From positions 366,231 through 430,230 of the forward strand of contig CAWCAG010000001.1 of the NCBI GenBank assembly GCA_963793425.1: DNA of 64,000 bases, written 5' to 3'. The notes below the pieces were generated by a model, which was given only the letters and a program-made list of their open reading frames with translations, was not told the origin of the DNA and searched no databases. This stretch comes from an uncultured cyanobacterium (GTDB lineage Bacteria > Cyanobacteriota > Cyanobacteriia > Cyanobacteriales > CAWCAG01). Positions 19,385 to 40,683 of this stretch are shown here, one piece after another. Both the position numbers and the translations under genes were made by a program. Numbering within the stretch: position 1 is the stretch's first letter; each line of letters opens with the position of its first letter.

Positions 19385-20176
19385 TTAACCGCCTTCAATC
19401 GCCTCTTGAATTGCTAGGGGAACCCGGTTGAGGAAGTCGTAGCCTGTTTTTGCTTCTAGTTGATCAACGCTTACTTGATAATTTTCCCAGTCTGGGCTAG
19501 TGTTGACGCGGTTGGTAACATCAACAGCAATCACTCTGGTATTTTCTGAGATACCATTTAAGCCTGTTCCTGGTTCATCTAAGACAACGATTACTTTCCA
19601 AGTATAGGTGGGTACGGTTATTTGTTTGTCGGGGCCAATTTTTTCCCTCTCCCCATAAACTCCAGCGACAATGTAAAGTTCTTTACCTTCTTCTACTAAG
19701 TCTCGACAGTATTCTTCTAACTCTCGCCATGCACCCCGATTGTTATTTGGGGTTTGGGGTATGATGTTGGTCATTAAAAAAGTGGCCGAGTTATCTTCTA
19801 CGGTATCCCTTCTATCCGCAGAAGGGGTAAGATGACCACGATCATAGCCACTTCCCGGATAATCGCCTGCTCTGACCTGATACCATTCTGCTGGTAAGGT
19901 AGCATCAGGGCGAAAATCATTTTGCCTTTCTACATTACCTAACCAACTTTGGTTAAGCTGCCAAGCAACCCAATTAGGGGTTGCCCGTTCTTGGTTATAA
20001 GATAGGGCATATTGGGGCTTTTCCATTAAATAATTATTTGGCTCTAACCCGGCGTTACTAGGATTGCCTAATAATAAGTGAGGACTGGTTGGTGTCTCGA
20101 AGTCTAAAAGAAAATCGCAGCCAGTTTGGAGGAAGATTAAAATAGTTGCGATCGCAATAGTTAGTTGTTTTGGCAC
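19385..20176 (-). CDS. DNA/RNA non-specific endonuclease (NucA-like), probable lipoprotein
   Basis: YDRGHLTPSADR active site; TFLMTNIIPQ..NNRGAW; lipobox-like QTGC. Confidence 0.92.
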   Translation of the reverse strand: MPKQLTIAIATILIFLQTGCDFLLDFETPTSPHLLLGNPSNAGLEPNNYLMEKPQYALSYNQERATPNWVAWQLNQSWLGNVERQNDFRPDATLPAEWYQVRAGDYPGSGYDRGHLTPSADRRDTVEDNSATFLMTNIIPQTPNNNRGAWRELEEYCRDLVEEGKELYIVAGVYGEREKIGPDKQITVPTYTWKVIVVLDEPGTGLNGISENTRVIAVDVTNRVNTSPDWENYQVSVDQLEAKTGYDFLNRVPLAIQEAIEGG

Positions 20177-20241: not shown

Positions 20242-21282
20242 TTAGGAAGCTAAAAACTTTGCTAATGCTTCTACTTTTAACCAAGCTTCACCGCTATCAA
20301 GGATATCATTGGCTAATTCAATGCCTTGTTGATAGTCTCCCCAAGGCACAGCATCGGCAACTTGTAAAGCTAAGGAAGTATTTAAGGCGACAACATCTTG
20401 TTGTGCCTTTGTACCTTTACCTTGCAAAACATTAGTGAGAATAGTCGTATTTTCTGCGATGTCACCGCCTTGTAAGGCTGTTGTGGGGGCGTAAGCTAAG
20501 CCTAGTTCTTTGGGGTTGATACTACTGATTTTTGTCTTTCCTTGGGCAACTAGGGCTAAATCCGTAGCCTCTGCTAATCCGGCTTCGTCTAATTTTTCCC
20601 TACCATGCAAAACAATGGCTTTGGGTATACCTAATTGGTTTAAGGCTTCTGCCATCGGAGTTAAAAATTGAGGATCAAAAACCCCAATTACTTGTCCTGT
20701 AGGGCTTAAGGGATTGACCAAAGGCCCAAGGAGGTTGAATACTGTTCTAACTTTGAGGGTACGACGCAAAGAAGCAACACTTTTCATGGCAGGATGCCAA
20801 CCGGGGGCGAAAAGGAAGGTGATACCGACTTCTTGTAGGGCAGCTTGTACTTTTGCAGTAGGGGCAGTAAGATTAATGCCTAACGCTTCTAAGACATCAG
20901 CCGAACCAACTTTGCTAGAAGCGGAACGATTGCCATGTTTGGCTACCGCAACCCCAGCAGCAGCAGAAACAAAGGCTACTGCTGTGGAAATATTAAAAGT
21001 TGATGCCCCGTCCCCTCCTGTACCGCAAGTATCGATGACAGGTTGGTTATGTTGGGGGGTTTCTTGTTGTAAAGATTGAGATTTTAAGACTTTAGCCATG
21101 CCCACGAGTTCCGCCGCAGATACACCTTTGGCTTGGAGGGCTACTAAAATTGCCCCAGAAAGGACAGGGGGGATTTTTTCTTGTAACCAACTTTCCATAA
21201 GGACAGAGGATTGGTCTTGAGAAAGAGATTCTTGATCTAATAATTGTTGTAGCAATTCAGACCAAATAATATCATTTATCAT
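20242..21282 (-). CDS. trpD: Anthranilate phosphoribosyltransferase
   Basis: [34 protein letters not shown] and [10 protein letters not shown]. Confidence 0.97.
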
Positions 21283-21374: not shown

Positions 21375-24131
21375 TTAGCTATTAACCTTTAACTTAATCT
21401 TTTCAGCATATAAACTCTGCAATCTTTCCAACTTCGCATTAGTTAAAAACAATAAATCTCCTTTACCTAATAAATAAGCTGCTTCTTTTTGTTTGCCTCC
21501 TAAAATGATTTCTGAGTCGGCTTCGCTAGCGGTACGCAAAGCAATTCTGCCTGGTAAATTGGAACGGATAATGGGGGTGACAACACTCGCTTCTGGGCGT
21601 TGGGTGGCAATGATTAAATGAATACCAGCCGCCCTTGCCATTGCCCCTAAACGCTTGATACTCTGTTCTAAGATTTTGCGCGTTTCTTTTTCTACCATGA
21701 AGTCTGCATATTCATCAAAGATGCAAATGATGGGAGGTTCTGGTTTTTTTTGCTGTTGTGCTAGGTGTTGGTTATAGGCAGTTAAGTTGGGGCAAGAGTT
21801 GAGTTCAAAAAGTTGGTAACGACGTTCCATTTCTACTACTAATTTTTCCATTAGTTCAATGGCGCGATCGCTATCTTTAACTACCGGGGAAAGTAGCCAG
21901 GGCATTTTTTCAAATTCCGGGAAAGTAACTCGTTTTGGATCTACTAAAGCAATTTTTAATTGGTTGGGGGGATGGCGATTTAAAAGACTGAGTAGTAATG
22001 CCCGCAAAAACTCACTTTTTCCGCTACCTGTTGTTCCTCCTACCAAGAAATGGCAAGTATTAGAGTCAGCTAAGTTGGCTTCTATTAATTGGTTATTTAA
22101 GTTGATACCAATAGCAATTTTTACTGGGGCGGTGGCGGGAAGAATTTCTGGTTGAATATAAGTTTCAAAGTTGGCAGTTTGGCGTTTGGGGCGGGGTAAA
22201 TCAACGCTAACATAGCCAGCTTGCGGAGTGATTAAGGGAGGATTGTTGATGCCCAATTGTACTTGCAGGTCATCTGCTAATCTTAATAAGGAACTAACTT
22301 TAACTCCTAAGTTAGGTTTGATTTTAACTCTAATGAAAGCTGGCCCTAAAGCCGCCCCTAAGTATTCGACGTTGAGTTTGAAAGATTGTAAAATTGCTAC
22401 TAGTTGTTCACCAATTTTATCGGCTTCTTTGGTTGATTGTGGTTCGGTATTTGTGTTAGTTTCCTCAACTGGTTTTGCTGTAGTTGTTGGCTCATTTTTA
22501 GGAATTACTTGTGGGGCGATAATTGGCTCAGTTTGAGGTGTTGTTTGGGTTTCAGGAATATTAACTTCTACAGTAGGTTGAGATTCTGTAATTGGTGTTT
22601 TTGCTTCAGTTAGATTAGTAGGAAGAGTTGATTCTTGTGTAGGAGCAACTTTGGGTTTAGTAATGGAATTAGCAGTAGTAGATTTTCCTTCAATTAAAGG
22701 AGGATTGGGGAAGAAAGTTCGACACTTTTGTTGTTGCGGACAAAGGGGACAAAGTAACTCTGGTTGAGATGTGGCAGGCGGTGGATTTGGTTGAGATTGT
22801 TGCCAGTTTAACCACTGTTGTATTTGTTGGAGTTTTTCGGGAATAAGTTGATGAATGGTTGCTTCTAATTGTTCCCAGGTTAAAGTTAGTTCTTGCCAAT
22901 CAGGTAAGACAGTATAAACTGCGGAATCTATAGGAACTCCCACCCTATTTTTGAGCATATAACCATAGAGGGCAACTTGTGCCAATTGAGCAGATTTATC
23001 CGGGCTATGGTAGGTTTTATAATCTACGACACAAAGCCGATGTTGAGAAAAGTCATAAACTAAACTATCAAATCTGCCTTTAATTAATTGTTCTTCACCG
23101 TTGCTTAAAAGAAATTTGTAATGAATATCTAATTCTTGGGCAATGAAAGTTTTACTAATAACTTCTTCGGCAGAGCAAAAGCTACGGTTAGTAACGAGTA
23201 ATTCAGCCCAACGTGCAATTAAATTTTGTAATCCTTGCCAAATTGTATATAGAGGCTGTGCTTTAGCCGGATCAACTCTAATAGCATTTTGTAAATAGGG
23301 AAAGAATGCTAATTCATATAATAATTCTTGCATTTTCTGCGCTACTTCTGTGGCGTTTAGTTGTTGGGGAGTAGCTATTAGTAGTTGTTGGAATTGAGTT
23401 TCTTTTTGAATGGAGTTAACAAAGCGATCAGATAGTTGATGAAATATTTTCCCGATGCCAGGAGATTTATTAGGAGGTACGAACATCGTTTTCCCGCCGT
23501 ACTTCTGACCGAGATAAAAAAGACGAGGACATTCAAAAGCTAAACAAACTTTAGTGACACTGAGGGGAGGAAGAGCTTTTTTGATAATATTCCTAAGAGT
23601 TGGTTTTAGCAAGTAATTATGTAATTGTGCTAAATAAACGACATCCATTTGAGCATAGTTTAATTGTGTCGCCGTTAAAGGACGCTTGCCCCAGTCACTC
23701 CCTTGAGGCTCTATATCGGCTGCGGGAAAGTTACATAATTCTGTAGCTAGGGTTTTAAGTTTTAAGTTAGTTACTCCTGGTAATAAGTGGCGATTACTTT
23801 TAGCTAATTTTAAAGTACAAGTAATATTCTTGGCTTTATTTTTGCCTAAAAATCTTAAATCGTAAGCCGCGTTATGAAAAACTTTTTCTATCTGCGGATT
23901 AACCATGATTTGGCTAATAAAATAGTTAATTAAATCCGGTGTTTGTAAAATATCTAAAACATAAGCCTTTTCTCCCGTAACATCTTTAGCATCAACTAAA
24001 GCTTGAATTAAAGAAAGTCGAGGGTTTTTAGTTCGCCAGTCAGCAACTTCTGTATCTAACCACAGCACTTTTGCTTGGGTTAGTTTATTCATCGTTTGCC
24101 AAATGGCTTGAGAGTCAGTTAAGTAAGGCAT
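21375..24131 (-). CDS. Fusion of a DnaQ/RNase D-like 3'-5' exonuclease, a Cas4/RecB-like PD-(D/E)XK nuclease and an FtsK/SpoIIIE motor
   Basis: Exo motifs WLDTE, VFHNAAYD, YAQMD; nuclease GRFD...VVDYKT...QVALY with C...CPLC.....C; FtsK HFLVGGTTGSGKS, LVDPK, IFDEYAD, ARAAGIHLIIATQRP. Confidence 0.88.
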   Translation of the reverse strand: MPYLTDSQAIWQTMNKLTQAKVLWLDTEVADWRTKNPRLSLIQALVDAKDVTGEKAYVLDILQTPDLINYFISQIMVNPQIEKVFHNAAYDLRFLGKNKAKNITCTLKLAKSNRHLLPGVTNLKLKTLATELCNFPAADIEPQGSDWGKRPLTATQLNYAQMDVVYLAQLHNYLLKPTLRNIIKKALPPLSVTKVCLAFECPRLFYLGQKYGGKTMFVPPNKSPGIGKIFHQLSDRFVNSIQKETQFQQLLIATPQQLNATEVAQKMQELLYELAFFPYLQNAIRVDPAKAQPLYTIWQGLQNLIARWAELLVTNRSFCSAEEVISKTFIAQELDIHYKFLLSNGEEQLIKGRFDSLVYDFSQHRLCVVDYKTYHSPDKSAQLAQVALYGYMLKNRVGVPIDSAVYTVLPDWQELTLTWEQLEATIHQLIPEKLQQIQQWLNWQQSQPNPPPATSQPELLCPLCPQQQKCRTFFPNPPLIEGKSTTANSITKPKVAPTQESTLPTNLTEAKTPITESQPTVEVNIPETQTTPQTEPIIAPQVIPKNEPTTTAKPVEETNTNTEPQSTKEADKIGEQLVAILQSFKLNVEYLGAALGPAFIRVKIKPNLGVKVSSLLRLADDLQVQLGINNPPLITPQAGYVSVDLPRPKRQTANFETYIQPEILPATAPVKIAIGINLNNQLIEANLADSNTCHFLVGGTTGSGKSEFLRALLLSLLNRHPPNQLKIALVDPKRVTFPEFEKMPWLLSPVVKDSDRAIELMEKLVVEMERRYQLFELNSCPNLTAYNQHLAQQQKKPEPPIICIFDEYADFMVEKETRKILEQSIKRLGAMARAAGIHLIIATQRPEASVVTPIIRSNLPGRIALRTASEADSEIILGGKQKEAAYLLGKGDLLFLTNAKLERLQSLYAEKIKLKVNS

Positions 24132-24140
24132 TACTTTTAT

Positions 24141-26210
24141 TTATCTTTGAGGAACCCAACAAATTAGTAGTGCTTCCGGCTTTGCACTAGGGTCAAGAAT
24201 TTTAAGCTTCTGTTCTTGACAAAGTTCTTCGATAGCTATTTCTAATTCATCAAGACTCGCTTCGGGAAACTGGACGTTAGCATTCTCAAGTAAGGTGGGT
24301 TTACCCATAAGTTGTTGGCTCATCATTAAGTTCAAGAAAATCTCTTTGATTCTGTCAGATGGCGGTGTTGTCACTACAACTTTTTCTAAAAGTCTTTGCA
24401 ACAACTGACAATTTTCCAAAACTTTCGTTTGTGTAACTAAATTTTCTAATTCTATTAAATCAGGAGTTTCATCACCAACAACTAATTCTCCTGAACGAGC
24501 AGCATTAACCAAACTATGATAAGTTGCCAGATAGCAAACAGATTCTTGATTAGGTTTGTGATGTTGGTGATGGGAATCAATGAAAATCTGTTTATAGAGT
24601 TGATAACCTTTATTATTTGCTGTTCCCAACTTGTTGTCGCGAATTAAAAAGAGAGATTGGCATTGTTTGTCTTTGAGAGCTTTTTTACAAGCCTTCATCA
24701 AATAAGAAAAGCTTGATAAGTTAGCATCTTCGCTCCAAACTACTCCTATTTCAATGCCATTCTCTTTAGCAAATTTAAAAGAATAACTACTGTACTTTCC
24801 CGTTAAAAGCTTTGTTTCAATGTTAGTAACCTGCGAAGCAGCTAAAGCTTCTTGTAGCATTTTGACTAGCTCTGGCGAGGAGAATTGCGATACCTTAGTT
24901 ACTTGCTTTTGAATTTTATTAAATTCTTTTTGCCAAATTAGCTTAAATAAAGCGAGATGTTTATCCTTCTCGTTGCTAGAGTTACTATCACCCCTAACTT
25001 GCTTATCTTTGCCAACCTTGTTGTTCTTAGCAACTTGGTTATCATCACTAACCTGATTGCCACTACCAATTAAATCGTTACTACCAATTAATTTCTCTTT
25101 CAGTTCATTTTTATAATTTTGATATAACTGACTTCCCAACTTCAAAGCCAAACGAGGATTCGTTTTACCACGAAGATGTTTCTCTTCTAGTATTTTCCTG
25201 CTTAAAGGGAATAAGGGAGATTTAGGCGGAGAATCAAGTTGTTGATGCAGAGGGTAAAGTCGGCTGCACCAAAGTGCTTCGGCTTGGTCTAAATTAATTA
25301 GTTTGAGAGTTAATGTGGCTACAATTCTTGCTCGATCTGCTGCTTGAACATATTGGCTATGTTGCCGCCAGGTATCTTTAACCAAACTAATAATAATTAG
25401 AAAGTTTTTAAGATACTGATTATGAATAGTTGAATTAGCGCTGAATAAAGATTGTAAATCTATAAAACCGTCGCTACCAAGAGGAATATTATCTAAGTTG
25501 TCAAAGCAAAGAACTATCGGTTGGGTATCCTGAGCAATCCTACCAAAGTTATCAACAATTTTCTGGGCGGCTTCTTCATTATCGATACTATATTTAACCC
25601 CAATTCTTTTTTTATCTTCATCATCTAAATCATCTCCTTTCAACCAATCGCAACACAGAGGATATAACTCTGGTTGAGTCAGGTTGTAGAGAACAGTAAA
25701 AAACTCCTTAGACTTGTAAATACCAATAGGGTAAGCTGAGCGTAAATTATTAACAAAAAGTTGACGTTCCCCAAGCAACTTAGTAACAACTTTTTGTTCT
25801 TTCCCTTGCAATAAACCTTTTAACCAAAGTAAAAGTTGCGACTCTGCCTGATTTTCTGGTTTATACATCAAGCTATCAACTAAATAGCGCAATGTATGCC
25901 GCCAAATATAGTTGCCATCAGGCCAAGGGCCAATATAAGCAAAAAAAGCTTTAGTATTAAATCGCTTTTTAACTCTCCCTAATAAATAGCTTTTACCCGT
26001 GCCAGAATCCCCAATTAGAAGTAAACTGCGACTACGACCATCTTTACCTACTAAATCAAGGTATCTTTCTATCTCAGTAATCAATTCTCGATGAATAGAA
26101 TCAACAACTAACTCTTGCTTTTGTTCTTCTTTCCAAAAGTTACCTGGTGTTAAAGTTATGGCATCAAAAGGATTAGCTTCTTGGGCAATAAGCTGATCTA
26201 TAGGAGTCAT
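24141..26210 (-). CDS. P-loop (AAA-like) ATPase, RcaG-like, with C-terminal helical/winged-helix extension
   Basis: N-terminal NPF; Walker A GDSGTGKS; Walker B VLCFDNLD; NPR motif. Confidence 0.8.
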   Translation of the reverse strand: MTPIDQLIAQEANPFDAITLTPGNFWKEEQKQELVVDSIHRELITEIERYLDLVGKDGRSRSLLLIGDSGTGKSYLLGRVKKRFNTKAFFAYIGPWPDGNYIWRHTLRYLVDSLMYKPENQAESQLLLWLKGLLQGKEQKVVTKLLGERQLFVNNLRSAYPIGIYKSKEFFTVLYNLTQPELYPLCCDWLKGDDLDDEDKKRIGVKYSIDNEEAAQKIVDNFGRIAQDTQPIVLCFDNLDNIPLGSDGFIDLQSLFSANSTIHNQYLKNFLIIISLVKDTWRQHSQYVQAADRARIVATLTLKLINLDQAEALWCSRLYPLHQQLDSPPKSPLFPLSRKILEEKHLRGKTNPRLALKLGSQLYQNYKNELKEKLIGSNDLIGSGNQVSDDNQVAKNNKVGKDKQVRGDSNSSNEKDKHLALFKLIWQKEFNKIQKQVTKVSQFSSPELVKMLQEALAASQVTNIETKLLTGKYSSYSFKFAKENGIEIGVVWSEDANLSSFSYLMKACKKALKDKQCQSLFLIRDNKLGTANNKGYQLYKQIFIDSHHQHHKPNQESVCYLATYHSLVNAARSGELVVGDETPDLIELENLVTQTKVLENCQLLQRLLEKVVVTTPPSDRIKEIFLNLMMSQQLMGKPTLLENANVQFPEASLDELEIAIEELCQEQKLKILDPSAKPEALLICWVPQR

Positions 26211-26239
26211 AGGAAGAAAAAAATTAGTTTACTGGAAAT

Positions 26240-27493
26240 CTAGCTAACAGAGATAAAAAATAGAGGCCCGCCAATATCTTGAGGAATACCAGCACTCAGC
26301 TCTGTAGAGTTATAAACTCTCGTTTCCTGCAATGCTCCTAACTCAATACGATCATCATTTTCTAAGCGATAAAGAGCTTGATCTAACTCTTCCCTAGAAA
26401 GGGGCGGTTGAAACTTATCTCGCAGGTAAAAAATTGGTAAATAATTATCCAAACTCATTTTATGATCTAAATCTTTAATCGCTTGGAAAATCTCTTCATC
26501 TGTAGGTTTACTCTCTTCAACTTCTACTCTCTTTTCTGCAACTTCTTGCAACGAGAAGAAATGTTGATTAACCTTCTCTAAACAATCTTTTCCTTGAGGA
26601 GTTAGCCAAACTTTTGCCCCTGTTCGCTTAACCTTCATCTCCGCCGTAACTAAACCTTTATCCAAGAAATCTTGCAAAATCTTGTCTCTTACTGCGGCTT
26701 TAGGACTTTTAATTTCACTAGGTTTCGTTTTGCCTGTTTTAGCAATTTTTTCTAATACTTTAAACTCTTTTTCTGAAATTGGTGGTTTATTCCCTTGAGA
26801 GTTTAGTAAATCACTTCCCGGAGGAGCAACTTCTACAGTGGTGATATTTTTTTCTATCTCTGCGGTAACTAAACCTTTATCCAAAAAGTCTCTTAAAATC
26901 TCATCCCTCTCCGCTGCTTTAAGGCTTTTTTTATCAATCTTGAAATTAATCTTGCTCGGCTTCGTATTACCTTTTTTAGCAACTTGCTCTAATACCTTAA
27001 ACTCTTTCTCTGCTAGTGATAATTCCTTCGTTTCCAACTCCAACAAAGCAGTACCAGGAGGAGCAATTTCTACAGTGATAATATTTAGTTCCATCTCTGC
27101 TGAAACTAAATTCTTCTCCAAAAGAACTTGTAGAATTTTATCTCTCACCGCCGCCTTAAACTTTTTAGTTGTCAGGTCGCTTAACTTAGCCTTACCCTTT
27201 TTACCAATCTTTTCTAATACTTCCAACTCCTTAGCTGAAATCGGTAATTGCTTGGCTTCCAAATTCAGTAAAGCATTTCCTGGAGGGGCAATTTCTACAG
27301 TATCAATCTCACGACTAAAATCGACTATCCCCTTTTCCCTTAACTTCTGACAAATTTCGTCCCTTTGTTTGCTGTCAAGTTTGTTTTGTTTACTCTTGGA
27401 CTTAGTTAAAAAAGAACTAAGAGATGCTTCTTGGTTAGAACAAGAAGCCAACTCTAACAAAAACTTCAGTTCAGCAAAATTCTTTGCATCCAT
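26240..27493 (-). CDS. Lys-rich multi-winged-helix DNA-binding protein, RcaD-like, with three internal ~75-aa repeats
   Basis: ELKFLL start; three TVE(I/V)APPG...KE..VLE...KAA.RD.IL...L.K.LV repeats; C-terminal NYLPIFYLR...SREELDQALYRL...GIPQDIGGPLFFI, which I recall from RcaD-annotated cyanobacterial proteins. Confidence 0.65.
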   Translation of the reverse strand: MDAKNFAELKFLLELASCSNQEASLSSFLTKSKSKQNKLDSKQRDEICQKLREKGIVDFSREIDTVEIAPPGNALLNLEAKQLPISAKELEVLEKIGKKGKAKLSDLTTKKFKAAVRDKILQVLLEKNLVSAEMELNIITVEIAPPGTALLELETKELSLAEKEFKVLEQVAKKGNTKPSKINFKIDKKSLKAAERDEILRDFLDKGLVTAEIEKNITTVEVAPPGSDLLNSQGNKPPISEKEFKVLEKIAKTGKTKPSEIKSPKAAVRDKILQDFLDKGLVTAEMKVKRTGAKVWLTPQGKDCLEKVNQHFFSLQEVAEKRVEVEESKPTDEEIFQAIKDLDHKMSLDNYLPIFYLRDKFQPPLSREELDQALYRLENDDRIELGALQETRVYNSTELSAGIPQDIGGPLFFISVS

Positions 27494-27946: not shown

Positions 27947-28399
27947 ATGCTTATGAATTTAGAAGTTTCATCTTCTGATAACTTTCTCATCACCCCTGAA
28001 CCTTTATCCCTTGAGCAAGTCTACCAATTAGCAGATGATCCAGGAAATGGGGCTGTTGTGCTAATGAGTGGCATGGTACGTAATAAAACCGAAAACCGTT
28101 CCGTTGCCTACCTCGACTATCAAGCTTACGAACCGATGGCATTGCAAGTATTTGAGCAAATCGCCAAGGAAATTCACCAGAAATGGCCAGAAGTTAAACG
28201 AGTAGTCATTCACCATCGCATCGGTAAACTAAAAATTGGCGAAATCAGCGTCTTAATCGCCATCGGTTCCCCCCATAGAGCAGCAGCATTTGCCGCTTGC
28301 AGCTATGGCATTGATACCTTGAAATATAATGCGCCAGTTTGGAAAAAAGAATATTGGCAGGATGGTTCTTCTACCTGGGTTGTACCAAATCCGGCTTAG
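27947..28399 (+). CDS. moaE: Molybdopterin synthase catalytic subunit
   Basis: GAVVLMSGMVR, Y.AYEPMA, HHRIGKL, SPHR and LK..APVWKKE. Confidence 0.93.
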   Translation: MLMNLEVSSSDNFLITPEPLSLEQVYQLADDPGNGAVVLMSGMVRNKTENRSVAYLDYQAYEPMALQVFEQIAKEIHQKWPEVKRVVIHHRIGKLKIGEISVLIAIGSPHRAAAFAACSYGIDTLKYNAPVWKKEYWQDGSSTWVVPNPA

Positions 28400-28621
28400 C
28401 TGCACAGATTTTTTGTAGAGAAGTTGACGTACCTCAATGCCCATATAATCACTTTCTGGAGCAAGTGAACAACGCCTGGGAAAATTTTCTAGAGTCAACA
28501 TAATCTCGTAACATCCTCTCACCCAGGAATAAGCTCTTTGGGGAGAATCTTCCTTGAGCCAAAGAAAAATTCTTTCGATATCTGCCACAGCAGTAGGAGA
28601 GATTTCAATCTGGTAGACCAT
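28253..28621 (-). pseudogene. RelE/ParE-family toxin, apparently 3'-truncated and reading through into the moaE antisense strand
   Basis: The first ~71 aa are ParE-like (A.ADIE.I..WL...SP..A...LENFPRR...VRQLLY). The rest overlaps moaE by 147 nt and is not toxin-like. Confidence 0.65.
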
Positions 28622-28892
28622 GCTTATCCTTAAACTGTTGAAAAGCCTCCTTCAAAGGAAGACCTTCTCCTTGCTCAAACTCCTCAATACTTTTGCGGAT
28701 ACCTGCAATAGACTCAAGCAACTCAAGACGCTCCATTAGTTGCTGATAGCTATGAGCATCTTGAACAACCGCAGCAGCTTTACCGTTGACAGTAAGAACC
28801 ATAGGAGACTTAGTTTCTTTGAGCTTGACGAGGAAGGCTTTAGCACCTCGCTGAAATTCAGAAAGAGGATAAATATCACGAAGATTAAGCAT
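28605..28892 (-). CDS. Phd/YefM family antitoxin
   Basis: IYPLSEFQR...PMVLTVNGKAAAVVQDA.SYQ; overlaps the toxin start. Confidence 0.88.
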   Translation of the reverse strand: MLNLRDIYPLSEFQRGAKAFLVKLKETKSPMVLTVNGKAAAVVQDAHSYQQLMERLELLESIAGIRKSIEEFEQGEGLPLKEAFQQFKDKHGLPD

Positions 28893-30397: not shown

Positions 30398-31153
30398 TTA
30401 AGAACGGCGATAGGGTACTTTATCAAGGCTGATATTCATCGCAGAAACCCTGGGCATATTACCAGCCTTGGGGTTAATATTGCGTGCCATATCCAAAAAT
30501 TGATTAGGAGAACCCGCCACAGCCTTCTTATCTTGGGGAGTGAAGGTACGCACTTCGTTTTGCCAGATAATTTGGGGGAAACCCAACTTGGCACGATAGT
30601 AATCATCGTAGCGAGGAGATTTGATATTAAAAGGTCGTTCGCCCTCTTCACGGCCAGGAAGTATCCGACGGCGTTGGAAAGGAACGGTATCATAGCCAAA
30701 GTTCTCTAAATACTCATCGCTATCTAGAAGCTGATCAACCAATCCCTTAATCCCTTTAGTAGCAACTACAATAGACCAAGCAATTTTCTCTCGCTCATTG
30801 TAGGGTTCACGTCCCAAAACTTTTTGGATACAGTGTTCTACAAAACGGTAGTTGCTGTTCTTCTCATAGAAGCTATTTCTGTAGGTTTCAGAAAGTAACA
30901 GTCCGCGAATGAAATCCCGTACTGTAATCTGACCATTACGAAGTTGTGACTCTAGAACAGACTCGCGGTCTGCTTTAAAAGCATGGAAGAATATTTGACG
31001 ATAAGCTGCTTCAATTAGCTCATCCATCGCTACAGAAGAAAGTATATCTTCTGTAGAATAAATCTTCGGCTGTTCGTCACCTGGAACCAGATATCCAGCC
31101 ACACGCTGATTTTGGCTTTTGGGCGCGTATTCTAAAAGTGGAATAGCCACCAA
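30398..31153 (-). CDS. cpcG: Phycobilisome rod-core linker
   Basis: [35 protein letters not shown]; hydrophilic C-terminus, so CpcG rather than CpcL. Confidence 0.93.
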
Positions 31154-31336
31154 TTAACCTCCAAAATATAAGTAAAAGTTTGCAAAGTTTAATCCCAATC
31201 ATAAGCTAGGAAGGGACTCTCTATAGATTGAGTGACTAATCACAATCTTGATTCTTGAATTAACTTCATTTATCTTTACCTTTCTTCACCTAAAACTAGT
31301 AGTTAGTGGCTCTTTTTCTGAGCAAGTTGTTCTTCC

Positions 31337-31927
31337 TTACCAAGTCCTTAAAACATAAGCTGTGTCTTCGGGAAGGTCCTTAGTTTCAGAAGATTCATCT
31401 TCTTCAGCTTCTGTACGCACTTCTATACAGAAAGTAGCTGTGTTGAAACCACCAAATCTTTTCACTGTGCTGGTTCGCATCCGAATATCAGGACTAGCAA
31501 ACCAAAAACGCTCAATAATGCTCATGGTTTCATATTCTGTAACCAAAACTAATCCCTCTTCATCATCCATCTCATAATGTCCTGCCACGGGAACAATTTC
31601 GGCATAACCTCTTTCTCGTAGCAGTTTCCCTTTACGAGGGTTATCTGGTTCAGGTACAAGGGCAAACACAGTAGTTCCTTCATGACTTTCATCTTCTTTA
31701 TCCCAAGCCATAGAACCATTCCAGCTTACAAAAGCTCCCCCTACTGTCAAGCTAGGATCTGTGTCGTGCATCTGACAAATTTCTGCAACTTTAGGATCAG
31801 CTTTGTTTAAATACTCCACACGAATATCTGAATCCCCCGTTTCAGCACGTCTGAAGGGTAAATGATGAGTAGTACGTTGAGATTTCCATTTGCCAGCACT
31901 CTGCTGAAAAAATTCTTTAGCGTCCAT
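31337..31927 (-). CDS. cpcS: Phycocyanobilin lyase CpcS/CpeS
   Basis: EFFQQSAGKWKSQRTTHHL, LLRERGYAE and ERFWFASP. Confidence 0.9.
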   Translation of the reverse strand: MDAKEFFQQSAGKWKSQRTTHHLPFRRAETGDSDIRVEYLNKADPKVAEICQMHDTDPSLTVGGAFVSWNGSMAWDKEDESHEGTTVFALVPEPDNPRKGKLLRERGYAEIVPVAGHYEMDDEEGLVLVTEYETMSIIERFWFASPDIRMRTSTVKRFGGFNTATFCIEVRTEAEEDESSETKDLPEDTAYVLRTW

Positions 31928-36501: not shown

Positions 36502-39500
36502 ATGGCTGACTACAAATGGAAAAGGTTTTGGTGTCCACGGGATGGCAAAATCAACTTAGGAGATGACGGTTATCTCTACGATCTAGATTCAGCCTCCTAT
36601 AGGTATCACGAAAATGCTTATCTGGTTACTTTCCAAGAAATAGCTGATGTACCTTGTTTAGTTTTGTTAGGAGAACCAGGTATTGGTAAATCTAGAGTCT
36701 TAGACGAGGCGCATACTCAAACAACAAACTCATCTCTTCATTTTGAATTAGGAGAGTACGGTTCAGATACAGAATTATGTAACGACATTTTCAAACATGA
36801 AGTAGTTCAAAATTGGCAAGAAGGAACCAACAAACTAGAACTTTTTATTGATAGTTTAGACGAAGGTCTTTTATCTATACCAGTATTAACAAGAATTTTA
36901 AAGCGAAAACTCGAAAACTTACCTTGTAGTCGCTTAAAGTTAAGAATCACTTGTAGAACGGCTGATTGGCCTAATTCTTTAGAAGAAAAACTTAAGGAAC
37001 TATGGGGCAAGGATGAGGTAAAAGTCTATGAGTTAGCACCTTTGCGACGCATAGATGTTGTTGAAGCAGCTAACACAAATCAAATAGATGCAGATGCTTT
37101 CTTGCAAGAGATATACGCAAAGAATGCCGTACCCTTAGCCTTCAAACCAATTACTCTAAAGTTTTTGCTTGATCTTTGTAAACAAGGGCAACAACTTCCG
37201 TCAACTCAGAAGGAATTATACGAAAAAGGTTGTCTTTGGCTTTGTGAAGAACATAACCGTGATCGCCTAGAGGCTGGTCACAAGGGTAAGTTTAAGGCAG
37301 AAGAAAGAATACGAATAGCTGGTAGAATTGCTGCTGTAACTTTGTTTGCTAGAAAAGCTGCTGTTCGTACAAATATAGATGATGTTGGAGAAAGTAGTAT
37401 ACAAGTCCGTGAGTTGTATGGTAAAGAAAAATTCACTGATTCTGAACTATTAATTACTGAAGAAGCTATAGAAGAAGTTTTTTCTATTACTCAGCTATTT
37501 CGTAGTGCAAACGGGATGGCTTTTGTTCACCAAACATACAGTGAATTTTTAGCAGCTTGGTATTTAAATGAGCATAACGTACCTTTAACACAACTCAAAA
37601 GCTTGTTTTTCTCCCCAGGAGATTCTGAAAATAAGCTAATTCCTCAACTTCATGAAACTGCTGCTTGGTTAGCAAGTATGAAGCGTGACTTTTTAGAAGA
37701 AGTAATGAAATCAGATCCGGATGTTCTTTTAAAAAGTGACGTTACTACAGAAGATAGTGTTCGAGAAGCTATTGTAGAAAATTTGTTATGCTTACTCGAA
37801 GATAAAAAACTATTTAATAAAGACTTAAATTATAGAAAATATGAAAGATTAAAACATGGACAACTAGCATCTCAACTACGTCCTTATGTCAAAGATTATA
37901 GGGAAAATAATAATGTCAGGTACGAAGCTATTTGTATTGCTGAGATTTGTAAGCTACAAGAACTTCAAGAAGATTTAGTAAATTTAGTATTAAATTCATC
38001 AGAACCAATATATCTTCGCTCTAATGCAGCTTGTGCATTAAGCTCAATTGGAGATAGAGAAACCAAAATGAAGTTGAAAGGTTTAGCTTTTAACGAACTC
38101 GAAGAAGATGAACATGAGAGCATAAAGGGCTGGTGCTGGTCAGCAATTTGGCCAGACACAATCACCGCAGCAGAGCTTTTTGAAAATTTATCTGTACCGA
38201 AAATAAATCATAACTATCCCAGCATATACGAAGTATTCCTTGAGCGTAAGTTAGCAGAACATCTCCAAAAAGATGACATTTTGTTGGCGCTTAATTGGCT
38301 AGAGGAGGAAGGTTTTCATCATAAATTTAGAGGGGCAGCAAGTTCAATAATCATAAAAGCTTGGGAATATTTGAATGAGCTAGGTGTATTGACTAGTTTT
38401 GCAAAAATAGCAGCCAAAAGATGGCAAGAAAGTCGGGATATTGTAATAGGAAGGTATGAAAATCAGCTTAGGAACTTAATTTTTAAAGATGCGCCAAAAC
38501 GTCGTTCTTTGATTGAAAAAGTAGTCAAGTTTATAGCTCAAGAAAATGAATATTCAAAGCATAAAGTATCTTATTTGAAGACGAAAATAACTTTAGAAAC
38601 AGATGAAATTATTAATATTACTGAGTCTAATGAAATTTTCAAGGAGAGATTTTCTAATTATTTGGGTTCAGTTGATATTGATTCTGAATCTGCTAAGAAG
38701 CAAAAAGCATCATACGAAGAAATGCTAAGCAAGTCTGGCTATGAAGATAATATTAATTTCCTTAAGTTGCCTTCTCAAGAAAAGATTAGGTTACTGTTGA
38801 ATAAAATAGAGTCAGGTGAAATTTTGTTATGGCGTAGCCTTATCGAAGAAATAAATAATAAGGAAGATGGTCAGCTAGAAAACTTATCACAACAAGTAGA
38901 TATAACCTCTTTTCCAAACGGACAAAAAATAGACGATATTACTCAAAAAAGAATTGTACAAGCTGCAAAGAAATTTACATCACGTTTCAGTCCAAGTCTT
39001 TGGAGATTCTACAATTATTTGCTAAATGTCGAAGTTTTGTTATGTTTTTTGAAAAAGCTTAGCAAGAATATTAAAACTAGTTATTACTTAATTAGAGAAA
39101 TAAACAAACTCCTTAGTGTTGATTTAACTTCTTATCGTTATAAAATATATTTATTAGAGCAATTAGACTACACAACTATAAAACTAATTCTTAGAGAAGA
39201 GTCAAGTATTGTCAAACAACGAACTAGAAAGATATGGCGTAAATGGGAATCAGCTTTTTCATCTTGCTTGCCGAATCAAAGTGATAATTGCGAAATAGAT
39301 ACAAAGCAAATTAACTTAGAATTAGAGGATATCAATAATCGCATCTTTGAAACATTAGATTTTAAAACTGCACAACATATATCTGCAAGCAGCTACAGAT
39401 TTATAATTAATAAGATTGACTCTATTTGGAATGACAATATAGCAGACTTACTTCTTTCTCTAGCAGCTTATCAAGATACTAAACCTGAAATTGTAGAGCA

Positions 39501-40683
39501 ATTGCTGACAAAATTGCTAAGACACGAGTTTAGCAAAGCTGAAGATTTTGCCAAGTCATTAATAAAAGATGAATATGATATTAATAGTCAAGACTATCAA
39601 AAGTCTATTATTGCTGCTAAGGAGTTGATTAAACGTACAAAAGATGGATGGTCATTGATTCGTCCTAAGATAGAGAAAAATATTAATTGGGGAAGAGAAG
39701 TCATTGGAAAAGTTGCCATATTTGAAGGTTTTTCGGCTAATTTGAAGTTGAATGAAGTACAACTAGCAGATTTTTATATTTGGCTTGTTCATCAATATCC
39801 TCATCATGAAGATCCTGGATATAAAAAAGTTGATACCGAATGTAGCTCAAGAGCAACTAAAGTACTAAGAGATAGCATTTTAGAACAACTTAAGCAATAC
39901 GGTACATATAAAGCCTGCAAACAAATTCAACGAATTTCCCAAGAATTGCCTCAAATGAAAGGGTTTTACAAAGTTCATTTAACAGCCCAAGAAATAACCC
40001 GCCGCAAAAGTTGGAAACCTCTTCAACTTTCTGAAATACTCAAGCTTATCAGCGACTCAAATAAACGCATTATTCAAGACGGCAATCAATTACTTGATGT
40101 ATTAATTGAATCATTAGAAAACTTACAAACAAACCTCAAAGGAGAAACGCCTATGGCAAAATTCCTCTGGAATGAAGTTGACAAAAAAGTCTATAAACCA
40201 AAAGATGAAAATGATTTATCTGACTACATCAAAAATCACCTTGACAAAGACTTTAGTTTGCAACATCAAGGTATTTTTATTAATAGAGAAGTAGAAATAA
40301 GAAGAGGGGGTACGGGAGGATTACCTGGAGAACGAACAGACCTTCATGTTGATGCTATTATACGAGATCTTGATGGAAATATTACCGACCAAATAACAGT
40401 TATTATCGAAGTAAAAGGATGTTGGCATCCAGATTTAAACGATGCAATGAAAGATCAGCTCGTTAATCGCTATCTCAAAGACAACACTTGTCAGCATGGT
40501 TTATATTTAGTTGGTTGGTTTAATTGTCAGCAATGGGATAAAGACGATTATAGAAAACGACAAGCCCCCAAAATTCCTGTTGAACAAGCAAAAACAGAAT
40601 TTAACGAACAAGCAGAAGGACTATCATCATCTAATACGGGTATGCAAATCAAAGCTTTTGTTCTCGATACGGCACTTCACTAA
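36502..40683 (+). CDS. NACHT/STAND-like NTPase with HEAT-like repeats and C-terminal PD-(D/E)XK nuclease-like domain (1393 aa)
   Basis: Walker A LLGEPGIGKS; Walker B LFIDSLDE; ITCR; FVHQTYSEFLAAWYL; C-terminal ENDLSDY...NREVEI...RTDL....IIEVKG. Confidence 0.75.
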   Translation: MADYKWKRFWCPRDGKINLGDDGYLYDLDSASYRYHENAYLVTFQEIADVPCLVLLGEPGIGKSRVLDEAHTQTTNSSLHFELGEYGSDTELCNDIFKHEVVQNWQEGTNKLELFIDSLDEGLLSIPVLTRILKRKLENLPCSRLKLRITCRTADWPNSLEEKLKELWGKDEVKVYELAPLRRIDVVEAANTNQIDADAFLQEIYAKNAVPLAFKPITLKFLLDLCKQGQQLPSTQKELYEKGCLWLCEEHNRDRLEAGHKGKFKAEERIRIAGRIAAVTLFARKAAVRTNIDDVGESSIQVRELYGKEKFTDSELLITEEAIEEVFSITQLFRSANGMAFVHQTYSEFLAAWYLNEHNVPLTQLKSLFFSPGDSENKLIPQLHETAAWLASMKRDFLEEVMKSDPDVLLKSDVTTEDSVREAIVENLLCLLEDKKLFNKDLNYRKYERLKHGQLASQLRPYVKDYRENNNVRYEAICIAEICKLQELQEDLVNLVLNSSEPIYLRSNAACALSSIGDRETKMKLKGLAFNELEEDEHESIKGWCWSAIWPDTITAAELFENLSVPKINHNYPSIYEVFLERKLAEHLQKDDILLALNWLEEEGFHHKFRGAASSIIIKAWEYLNELGVLTSFAKIAAKRWQESRDIVIGRYENQLRNLIFKDAPKRRSLIEKVVKFIAQENEYSKHKVSYLKTKITLETDEIINITESNEIFKERFSNYLGSVDIDSESAKKQKASYEEMLSKSGYEDNINFLKLPSQEKIRLLLNKIESGEILLWRSLIEEINNKEDGQLENLSQQVDITSFPNGQKIDDITQKRIVQAAKKFTSRFSPSLWRFYNYLLNVEVLLCFLKKLSKNIKTSYYLIREINKLLSVDLTSYRYKIYLLEQLDYTTIKLILREESSIVKQRTRKIWRKWESAFSSCLPNQSDNCEIDTKQINLELEDINNRIFETLDFKTAQHISASSYRFIINKIDSIWNDNIADLLLSLAAYQDTKPEIVEQLLTKLLRHEFSKAEDFAKSLIKDEYDINSQDYQKSIIAAKELIKRTKDGWSLIRPKIEKNINWGREVIGKVAIFEGFSANLKLNEVQLADFYIWLVHQYPHHEDPGYKKVDTECSSRATKVLRDSILEQLKQYGTYKACKQIQRISQELPQMKGFYKVHLTAQEITRRKSWKPLQLSEILKLISDSNKRIIQDGNQLLDVLIESLENLQTNLKGETPMAKFLWNEVDKKVYKPKDENDLSDYIKNHLDKDFSLQHQGIFINREVEIRRGGTGGLPGERTDLHVDAIIRDLDGNITDQITVIIEVKGCWHPDLNDAMKDQLVNRYLKDNTCQHGLYLVGWFNCQQWDKDDYRKRQAPKIPVEQAKTEFNEQAEGLSSSNTGMQIKAFVLDTALH

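Follow-up and report, generated by a model that had tools for sequence, protein, structure and literature searches.

What do three adjacent cyanobacterial genes do together when the first is named for a regulator of chromatic acclimation, the last for a cell division protein, and an ATPase gene lies between them? The window analysed here is a 64,000-nucleotide stretch from an uncultured cyanobacterium (contig CAWCAG010000001.1, positions 366,231 to 430,230 of the forward strand), and it contains a compact operon encoding an RcaD-like protein with several winged helix-turn-helix (wHTH) units, an RcaG-like ATPase, and a fusion of a 3'-5' exonuclease, a PD-(D/E)XK nuclease and an FtsK motor. The best explanation overall, to which we assign a probability of about 0.5, is that the operon is a cyanobacterial Orc/CDC6-coupled FtsK capture system, in which the three proteins would make up an ATP-driven DNA-processing machine. 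That RcaD, RcaG and the fusion form one DNA-processing machine we consider likely; that the main role of the machine is defence against invading DNA is close to an even call, perhaps slightly short of one.

We surveyed 80 related loci from named genomes, of which 71 could be judged and nine were truncated by the end of a contig. In 70 of the 71 judged loci all three genes (RcaD, RcaG, fusion) were co-directional and in that order, and the exception (L065) had no detectable RcaD. Among 41 genomes sampled across the order the three-gene cluster was present in 16, and among 301 genomes sampled across the phylum we found the fusion in 34 and RcaG in 42, with RcaG present in all 34 fusion carriers. 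In one genome (G104), an intact fusion and an rcaDG pair lie 1 Mb apart, suggesting that the genes are retained together independently of their adjacency. An exhaustive RcaG profile search yielded 998 representatives at E<=1e-10, and RcaG-like proteins were also seen in metagenome-assembled genomes (MAGs) of Planctomycetota and Lokiarchaeia. Here, cooperation between RcaG and the nuclease-FtsK protein is best supported by a single-chain protein of 1348 amino acids (aa) from Carboxydochorda/Limnochorda (Limnochordia), in which residues 20-569 align collinearly with RcaG (E 5e-25) and residues 635-1334 with the PD-(D/E)XK-FtsK-alpha-FtsK part of the fusion (E 3e-61). The order kept in 70 of 71 loci, the presence of RcaG in every fusion genome, and this natural single-chain fusion support the view that the three genes are a conserved functional unit. 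An earlier note, made from the letters of the window, had proposed to look for co-occurrence of the three genes outside this genome and for a patchy distribution, and both were found; the operon is not part of a core gene set. The same note had proposed that RcaD is a recognition subunit rather than a transcription factor. Because the three genes form a conserved unit, this proposal is supported: the evidence favours RcaD as the subunit that recognises DNA within an ATPase/translocase/nuclease machine over RcaD as a transcription factor acting alone.

Several variant layouts were observed. In four Coleofasciculus/Microcoleus loci (L069, L082, L088, L089) the PD-(D/E)XK nuclease comes first, followed by the DEDD exonuclease and FtsK, a circular-permutation-like rearrangement that swaps the order of the nucleases and retains both. 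Exonuclease-less forms of the fusion (~690 aa) also occur, as do RcaD-RcaG-RcaG' operons that have two full-length ATPase paralogues and no fusion (L096, L097, L098, L039) and sometimes stand in tandem with the three-gene operon. In a minimal form (G280; L107 7552-8457), RcaD-RcaG is followed by a stand-alone PD-(D/E)XK nuclease of 301 aa.

In the window, the three minus-strand open reading frames (ORFs) of the operon are separated by only 29 bp (26211-26239, rcaD/rcaG) and 9 bp (24132-24140, rcaG/fusion). The downstream flank (20242-21282, minus strand) encodes a protein with the Pfam domains Glycos_transf_3 and Glycos_trans_3N, which fits trpD, and the upstream flank, on the opposite strand (27947-28399, plus strand), encodes MoaE (Pfam). 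The spacing and the position between trpD and moaE agree with what had been noticed at first. The features of the operon are as follows; model confidence is given as the predicted local distance difference test (pLDDT) and the predicted template modelling score (pTM) of AlphaFold2.

26240..27493, minus strand: rcaD-like gene, multi-winged-helix protein of 417 aa (P0001; ORF, RcaD-named homologues, pLDDT 72, wHTH matches at Z 9-11)
27254..27493, minus strand: N-terminal winged helix WH1 of RcaD, residues 1-80 (alignment; pLDDT 71-96; mean pairwise identity 52%)
26786..27181, minus strand: lineage-specific insertion in RcaD, two extra copies of the second wHTH unit, residues ~105-236 (a gap in the other 32 RcaD sequences)
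26243..26515, minus strand: C-terminal winged helix of RcaD, residues 327-417 (65% mean identity, the best-conserved part)
24141..26210, minus strand: rcaG-like gene, Orc/Cdc6-like AAA+ ATPase of 689 aa (P0002; ORF, AAA_16, pLDDT 86, pTM 0.86)
25098..26189, minus strand: AAA+ module of RcaG, residues 8-371 (structure matches to ORC4, Cdc6 and TnsC)
24495..24800, minus strand: inserted alpha/beta domain of RcaG, residues ~471-572 (secondary structure of the model)
24150..24368, minus strand: C-terminal winged helix of RcaG, residues 615-687 (cullin WHB and Rpa2 winged-helix matches)
21375..24131, minus strand: exonuclease-nuclease-FtsK fusion gene, 918 aa (P0003; ORF, Pfam)
23604..24122, minus strand: DEDDy 3'-5' exonuclease domain, residues 4-176 (DNA_pol_A_exo1, PF01612, E 1.7e-27)
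22719..23564, minus strand: RecB/Cas4/AddB-like PD-(D/E)XK nuclease with four cysteines, residues 190-471 (PDDEXK_1, PF12705, E 4.5e-14; Cas4 models)
22467..22718, minus strand: Thr/Pro-rich low-complexity linker, residues 472-555 (18 T and 15 P among 84 residues)
22194..22466, minus strand: FtsK alpha domain, residues 556-646 (FtsK_alpha, PF17854, E 2.2e-10)
21378..22130, minus strand: FtsK/SpoIIIE motor, residues 668-918 (FtsK_SpoIIIE, PF01580, residues 668-846, E 3.2e-41)

The fusion proved to be what the earlier note had described, a protein with two nuclease domains and a soluble FtsK motor. No hydrophobic segment was found (the highest 19-residue hydropathy is 1.22) and no FtsK gamma-domain family matched the protein at Pfam E<=0.1, and for these two reasons we call it a soluble FtsK; a model of E. 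coli FtsK aligned to it only up to position 1113 of 1355. In an alignment of 28 fusion orthologues, D26, E28, D91 and Y159 of the DEDDy exonuclease are invariant and D163 nearly so. Likewise invariant are D355, K372, Q382 and Y389 of the PD-(D/E)XK nuclease, the Cas4/AddB-style cysteines C201, C461, C464 and C470, and the Walker A (698-706) and Walker B (D806, E807) motifs of FtsK. With their catalytic motifs so preserved, all three enzymatic modules look active. The motor shows 77% mean identity among orthologues, against 14% in the Thr/Pro-rich linker. Among the fusion homologues listed, 115 of 120 carried all four Pfam domains, and five were without a PDDEXK_1 call. A stand-alone DEDD exonuclease of ~307 aa, about 55% identical to the N-terminal domain of the fusion, occurs in many cyanobacteria; in the genome of the window it is represented only by a fragment of 107 residues (C9:549002-549322).

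The second protein had been predicted to be a P-loop ATPase, and both its Pfam match (AAA_16, E 6e-09) and the fold of its model, built on an alignment of 35 sequences, agree. Residues 8-371 matched ORC4, Cdc6/Orc1 and TnsC at Foldseek E-values of 2e-4 to 1e-3, and by VIA the AAA+ module matched ORC/Cdc6/TnsC at Z 12-14 over ~250 residues; the VIA matches also included BrxC (Z 10.3) and Avs proteins (Z 10-12). Residues 615-687 matched the cullin WHB and Rpa2 winged helices over 64-69 residues (Z 10-12; root-mean-square deviation 1.6-2.0). The Walker A motif is GDSGTGKS. The Walker B motif is CFD(Q/N)(L/V)(D/E), with Q or N in the slot of the catalytic glutamate (position 238) in 34 of the 35 sequences, and this degenerate motif suggests that RcaG may be a slow, switch-like ATPase. 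In the inserted domain W492, E494, R524 and G529 are invariant. No RcaG homologue was found in a phage collection.

RcaD is the most variable of the three proteins by column: mean column identity in the three alignments was 37% for RcaD, 52% for RcaG and 62% for the fusion, with mean pairwise identities of 52%, 50% and 64%, respectively. Its homologues (40-46% identity, E ~1e-50 to 1e-58) carry the NCBI name "transcription factor RcaD", as do the Atlas clusters, and an ATPase gene follows directly downstream, which bears out the resemblance of the first two genes to RcaD/RcaG. The protein had been called a basic multi-wHTH protein, and only the second half of that description stands. The AlphaFold model and structure searches revealed several winged helices with MarR/PadR-type matches at Z 9-11, and the Pfam matches were confined to MarR/SarA wHTH families, all below threshold; the fraction of K and R (0.165) about equals that of D and E (0.168), indicating a highly charged protein that is not net basic. 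Conservation is concentrated in the C-terminal winged helix (65% vs 43-52% in the N-terminal units), which resembles the C-terminal winged helices of the kleisins ScpA (Z 8.9) and Scc1 (Z 8.7) and also gave a weak Z-alpha match (E 0.0019). The two extra wHTH copies, over which model confidence is low, are absent from the other 32 aligned RcaD sequences; they are common to the window's genus and a 77%-identical relative (416-417 aa), the usual RcaD being ~280 aa. No tandem repeat was seen at the DNA level beneath them, suggesting that the duplication is old.

Is this combination of parts already known? Rakesh, Aravind and Krishnan (Nucleic Acids Res 2024; PMC10853773) described HerA/FtsK proteins coupled to a specific Orc/CDC6 AAA+ ATPase. 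The core of these capture systems comprises the ATPase, an inactive restriction endonuclease (REase) domain between the AAA+ core and a C-terminal wHTH, an active REase, HerA/FtsK and wHTH domains, and these domains are split or fused across polypeptides in different ways (PMC10853773). Some operons include a separate, rapidly evolving protein of two to four wHTH units related to DndG/SspB/FokI, a 3'-5' exonuclease is optionally fused to the FtsK component, and in a subset there is an FtsK-alpha domain derived from the cellular FtsK (PMC10853773). From comparative genomics the authors predicted that the systems are targeted to invader DNA, which they pump into nucleases, in an anti-invader role, and placed the relatives in conflict-type, mobile neighbourhoods (PMC10853773); the prediction is restated in PMC12839542. 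The main text of PMC10853773 makes no mention of RcaD/RcaG or of cyanobacteria, and our literature search found no paper on the cyanobacterial fusion and no experimental test of the system.

The window's operon shares with this class an Orc/CDC6-type AAA+ protein with a domain inserted before the C-terminal wHTH, that is, where the published class has its inactive REase. It also shares a PD-(D/E)XK nuclease of apparently active type, an FtsK with FtsK-alpha, a separate multi-wHTH protein that is apparently fast-evolving, and a 3'-5' exonuclease fused to FtsK, and the RcaD-RcaG-RcaG' variant recalls the published "second Orc/CDC6" neighbourhoods. It differs in that the published neighbourhoods are mobile whereas the cyanobacterial operon is syntenic and mostly vertical, and in that no sequence kinship of RcaD to DndG/SspB was detected: the PADLOC models for these proteins matched none of 33 RcaD orthologues, and neither FokI nor DndG was among the RcaD structure matches listed. 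On these grounds the operon can putatively be placed among the Orc/CDC6-coupled FtsK capture systems as a cyanobacterial representative; the function of the class is itself a prediction. The earlier note's label of a candidate uncharacterised machine is therefore not supported as stated, since the architecture was described and an anti-invader role predicted in 2024 (PMC10853773). A match to an already named system, which that note would have taken against its proposal, was found in part, through PMC10853773; PADLOC v2 contains no model of the system and gives the locus no name.

Other known systems resemble the operon to a lesser extent. DndFGH/SspFGH likewise combine an FtsK/HerA-type motor having an FtsK-alpha-type region with wHTH and ATPase partners, but the other partners and the nucleases differ and the window's system has no phosphorothioate machinery. 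PADLOC gave only domain-level matches on the fusion (SspH, mad8, HerA, Cas4), and the SspH match (E 2.6e-70) covers only positions 1327-1736 of 1766, the ~410 positions of the C-terminal FtsK end. In HerA-NurA, a ring translocase of the FtsK-HerA superfamily also feeds duplex DNA to nucleases, but the window's system has DEDD and RecB-like nucleases built into the motor chain and includes loader-like partners, and no NurA family appeared in Pfam/NCBIfam scans of the three proteins. RecBCD/AddAB, which serve repair and defence, similarly join a motor to an iron-sulphur (Fe-S) RecB-family nuclease degrading linear DNA; the window's motor would instead be a double-stranded DNA (dsDNA) ring pump rather than a superfamily 1 helicase, and it has no known Chi-recognition component. 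Cellular FtsK/SpoIIIE shares the alpha and beta (motor) domains, whereas the fusion has neither a membrane anchor nor the gamma (KOPS-reading) domain, carries nucleases and is patchily distributed. By analogy, an initiator-clade AAA+ protein with a C-terminal winged helix, a tandem-winged-helix partner and a ring motor or effector recall MCM loading by ORC/Cdc6-Cdt1 as well as TnsC/MuB, although homology is limited to the AAA+ and winged-helix folds and the loading function is our inference. The RcaD/RcaG pair of Calothrix (Fremyella, Tolypothrix) PCC 7601 is akin through the NCBI-named RcaD homologues and the putative ATPase gene next to rcaD; the window's RcaD differs in its length (417 vs ~280 aa) and two extra wHTH repeats, and the published role of the pair is transcriptional. 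PCC 7601 was not among the strains returned by cluster look-ups, which included Tolypothrix tenuis PCC 7101.

From these parts we propose how the machine would work. RcaD would recognise DNA through its variable N-terminal winged helices and dock on RcaG through the conserved C-terminal one. RcaG, judging from its fold, the gene linkage and the natural fusion, may act as an ATP-dependent switch or loader, marking the DNA and bringing in or activating the fusion. The latter would form an FtsK-type ring pumping dsDNA to the DEDD 3'-5' exonuclease and the Fe-S RecB/Cas4-like nuclease on the same chain, and the intact catalytic motifs suggest that captured DNA would be degraded on both strands. 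The most likely target would be invading or mobile DNA, namely plasmids, conjugative elements and phage genomes, as predicted for the class.

A tree of the FtsK part (72 rows, FastTree) tracks taxonomy, with 19 changes of family label where the minimum is 15; label shuffles gave a mean of 39.6 changes, and none of 200 was as low as 19. Among the 301 phylum genomes we found decayed copies: four are C-terminal fragments, and in three the gene is interrupted by internal stops. In Pseudanabaena PCC 7367 the operon lies on a 329-kb plasmid typed as conjugative, where a phycobiliprotein lyase gene abuts it (L103 11290-11916), and toxin-antitoxin or Uma2 genes are neighbours at a few loci. A ParA-like ATPase gene stands in the flanks of 43 of the 80 loci, in many cases immediately downstream, and 37 of the 41 relatives have it, with or without the operon; since it occurs regardless of the operon, it appears to mark an old location and not to be a fourth subunit. 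Taken together, the operon in cyanobacteria looks like an ancient resident, mostly vertical in descent, with repeated loss and occasional mobility. A second ParA-like gene (~500 aa) recurs near RcaDG-type operons (L027, L042, L045, L046, L096, L109); in L027 it has an N-terminal HSDR_N_2-like domain, and it is sometimes paired with a protein of 234-312 aa, the partners in L046 and L048 having a Rho_N-like C-terminus.

In favour of a capture system directed at invading DNA, the operon is patchy with decayed copies, plasmid-borne in Pseudanabaena, and its RcaD is the least conserved column-wise. A number of results weigh against it. The flanks recurring at the 80 loci (glycosyltransferases, isoleucyl-tRNA synthetase, DnaB, ribosomal protein L9, FKBP) show conserved housekeeping synteny, and a tree that tracks taxonomy is unlike typical mobile defence islands. 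The setting in cyanobacteria is thus not one of defence islands. Clear foreign composition was not seen in the operon either: its GC content is 0.36-0.38 against a window mean of 0.40, the drop coming mostly from codon positions 1-2, and GC at third codon positions (GC3) is 0.28-0.31, within the range of 0.24-0.40 across 17 neighbouring genes. PADLOC v2 found no named system at the locus and no match for RcaG itself, with only generic P-loop matches among its orthologues, of which 6 of 35 weakly matched SspF and 5 of 35 DndF (best 4.4e-6). When the inserted domain of RcaG (residues 440-612 and 465-580) was aligned by hhalign to the PDDEXK profile of the fusion, the probability was an uninformative 0.2. 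The published phenotype of an rcaD mutant concerns the expression of phycobiliprotein operons (cited in PMC2799420), and the defence role, plausible as it is, is a computational prediction.

The pattern of descent raises the possibility of a domesticated DNA-maintenance machine, in which FtsK would drive double-strand-end resection or DNA turnover as in HerA-NurA or RecBCD/AddAB, RcaD/RcaG would load the machine on chromosomal DNA, and the whole would serve repair or chromosome-copy control in polyploid cyanobacteria. Mostly vertical descent, the conserved synteny beside a near-universal ParA-like gene and the housekeeping flanks suit such a role, and the nuclease pair resembles a WRN-type exonuclease with a Dna2/AddB-type Fe-S nuclease. 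An FtsK-family (PF01580) match over the cut-off occurs in only 55 of the 301 phylum genomes, and RecC (PF04257) was found in none of the 41 genomes of the order. The recBCD genes are known mainly from marine picocyanobacteria (PMC5101192), and these largely lack the operon (1 of 166). However, the 25 relatives without the operon are also without RecC, so that there is no complementary pattern, and the operon is dispensable, often lost or decayed (present in 34 of 301 and 16 of 41 genomes, with fragments) and plasmid-borne in Pseudanabaena; the fast-evolving wHTH subunit and the conflict-type neighbourhoods of its relatives fit defence better. We regard this explanation as unlikely. Complementarity with RecBCD as a discriminator was dropped, RecC being absent from all 41 relatives. 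Because the resident, vertical pattern departs from the "mobile neighbourhood" description, a cellular role keeps some probability, and a slightly less likely version of it is that the cyanobacterial "capture system" has become an anciently resident, ParA-neighbouring machine of chromosome biology and is no longer a mobile defence module. Such a machine could load on the cell's own DNA via RcaD/RcaG and resect, trim or eliminate chromosome copies or damaged DNA, and the effects on phycobiliprotein operons would then be a by-product of RcaD sitting on chromosomal DNA.

Can the published names be taken at face value instead? RcaD would then be a promoter-binding activator with RcaG as its helper ATPase, acting on phycobiliprotein operons in chromatic acclimation, and the nuclease-FtsK gene would be an unrelated neighbour. 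As cited in PMC2799420, Noubir et al. 2002 reported that RcaD binds the cpc2 promoter and that its loss alters several operons, and described the product of the downstream gene, RcaG, as a putative ATPase that may help RcaD to bind. In the window, genes for a phycobilisome linker and for CpeS are found 3-4 kb away from rcaD, and the plasmid-borne operon of Pseudanabaena has a phycobiliprotein lyase gene right next to it. Across the 80 loci, phycobiliprotein genes are not a recurrent feature of the flanks. This explanation leaves unaccounted for the linkage to nuclease-FtsK in 70 of 71 loci, the RcaG found in 34 of 34 fusion genomes, the single-chain RcaG-nuclease-FtsK of a non-photosynthetic Limnochordia lineage, and the RcaG-like proteins of Planctomycetota and Lokiarchaeia. 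An RcaD-like protein also bound the unrelated jamaicamide promoter (PMC2799420), and two studies recovered RcaD-like proteins in pull-downs with unrelated promoter DNAs, which fits a general DNA binder; we consider a dedicated transcription factor improbable. Far less probable still is that the third gene encodes the DNA translocase FtsK of cell division, resolving and segregating chromosomes at the septum. FtsK alpha and motor domains are indeed present, the fusion is the sole PF01580 match in the window's genome, and public entries call it "DNA translocase FtsK" or "cell division protein FtsK". Two nuclease domains in the N-terminal 471 residues take the place of the membrane anchor, however, there is no hydrophobic segment or gamma-domain match, and the fusion is absent from most sampled cyanobacteria, with no PF01580 match in the Synechococcus elongatus control. 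Since most of the strongest PF01580 matches in the phylum are the fusion, both public names appear misleading. The other PF01580 matches include SspH-like proteins of ~1750-1815 aa and plasmid-type FtsK proteins.

Although the kind of system was computationally described in 2024, its cyanobacterial form adds an operon that is mostly vertical, in housekeeping synteny and often lost or decayed, a fusion that supplies most of the strongest FtsK-family matches in the phylum, and several variant layouts. The comparison ties the 2002 RcaD/RcaG literature to the capture-system class and corrects annotations. If the capture-system reading is true, database entries called "transcription factor RcaD" or "cell division protein FtsK" carry the wrong labels and belong to one nuclease machine that captures DNA, the chromatic-acclimation story of 2002 needs to be read again, and cyanobacteria gain a testable barrier to plasmids and phages, of relevance to the genetic engineering of strains resistant to transformation. 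The operon would also be a small natural case of an Orc/Cdc6-like loader paired with a nuclease-carrying FtsK ring, and its stable, chromosomal, often-lost copies suit knock-out and complementation experiments that separate defence from repair.

A scan for promoters and terminators at the locus gave nothing above shuffled expectation. No clean empty site was found: in a genome of the same family that lacks the three-gene cluster (G002, 98% complete), trpD and moaE lie on different, rearranged contigs. Around the operon, a gene for a DNA/RNA non-specific endonuclease (Endonuclease_NS, 263 aa, E 2.8e-59; 19385-20176, minus strand) lies two genes downstream, just past trpD. Beside moaE, a Phd/YefM-type antitoxin ORF (28605-28892, minus strand; E 7e-11) overlaps a 122-aa ORF that has no Pfam match (28253-28621, minus strand), and the two are probably a small toxin-antitoxin pair. 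The phycobilisome linker gene and the CpeS-like lyase gene near rcaD occupy 30398-31927 on the minus strand. Farther along, a 1393-aa ORF with no Pfam match (36502-40683, plus strand) has the lowest GC of the region (0.34; GC3 0.24).

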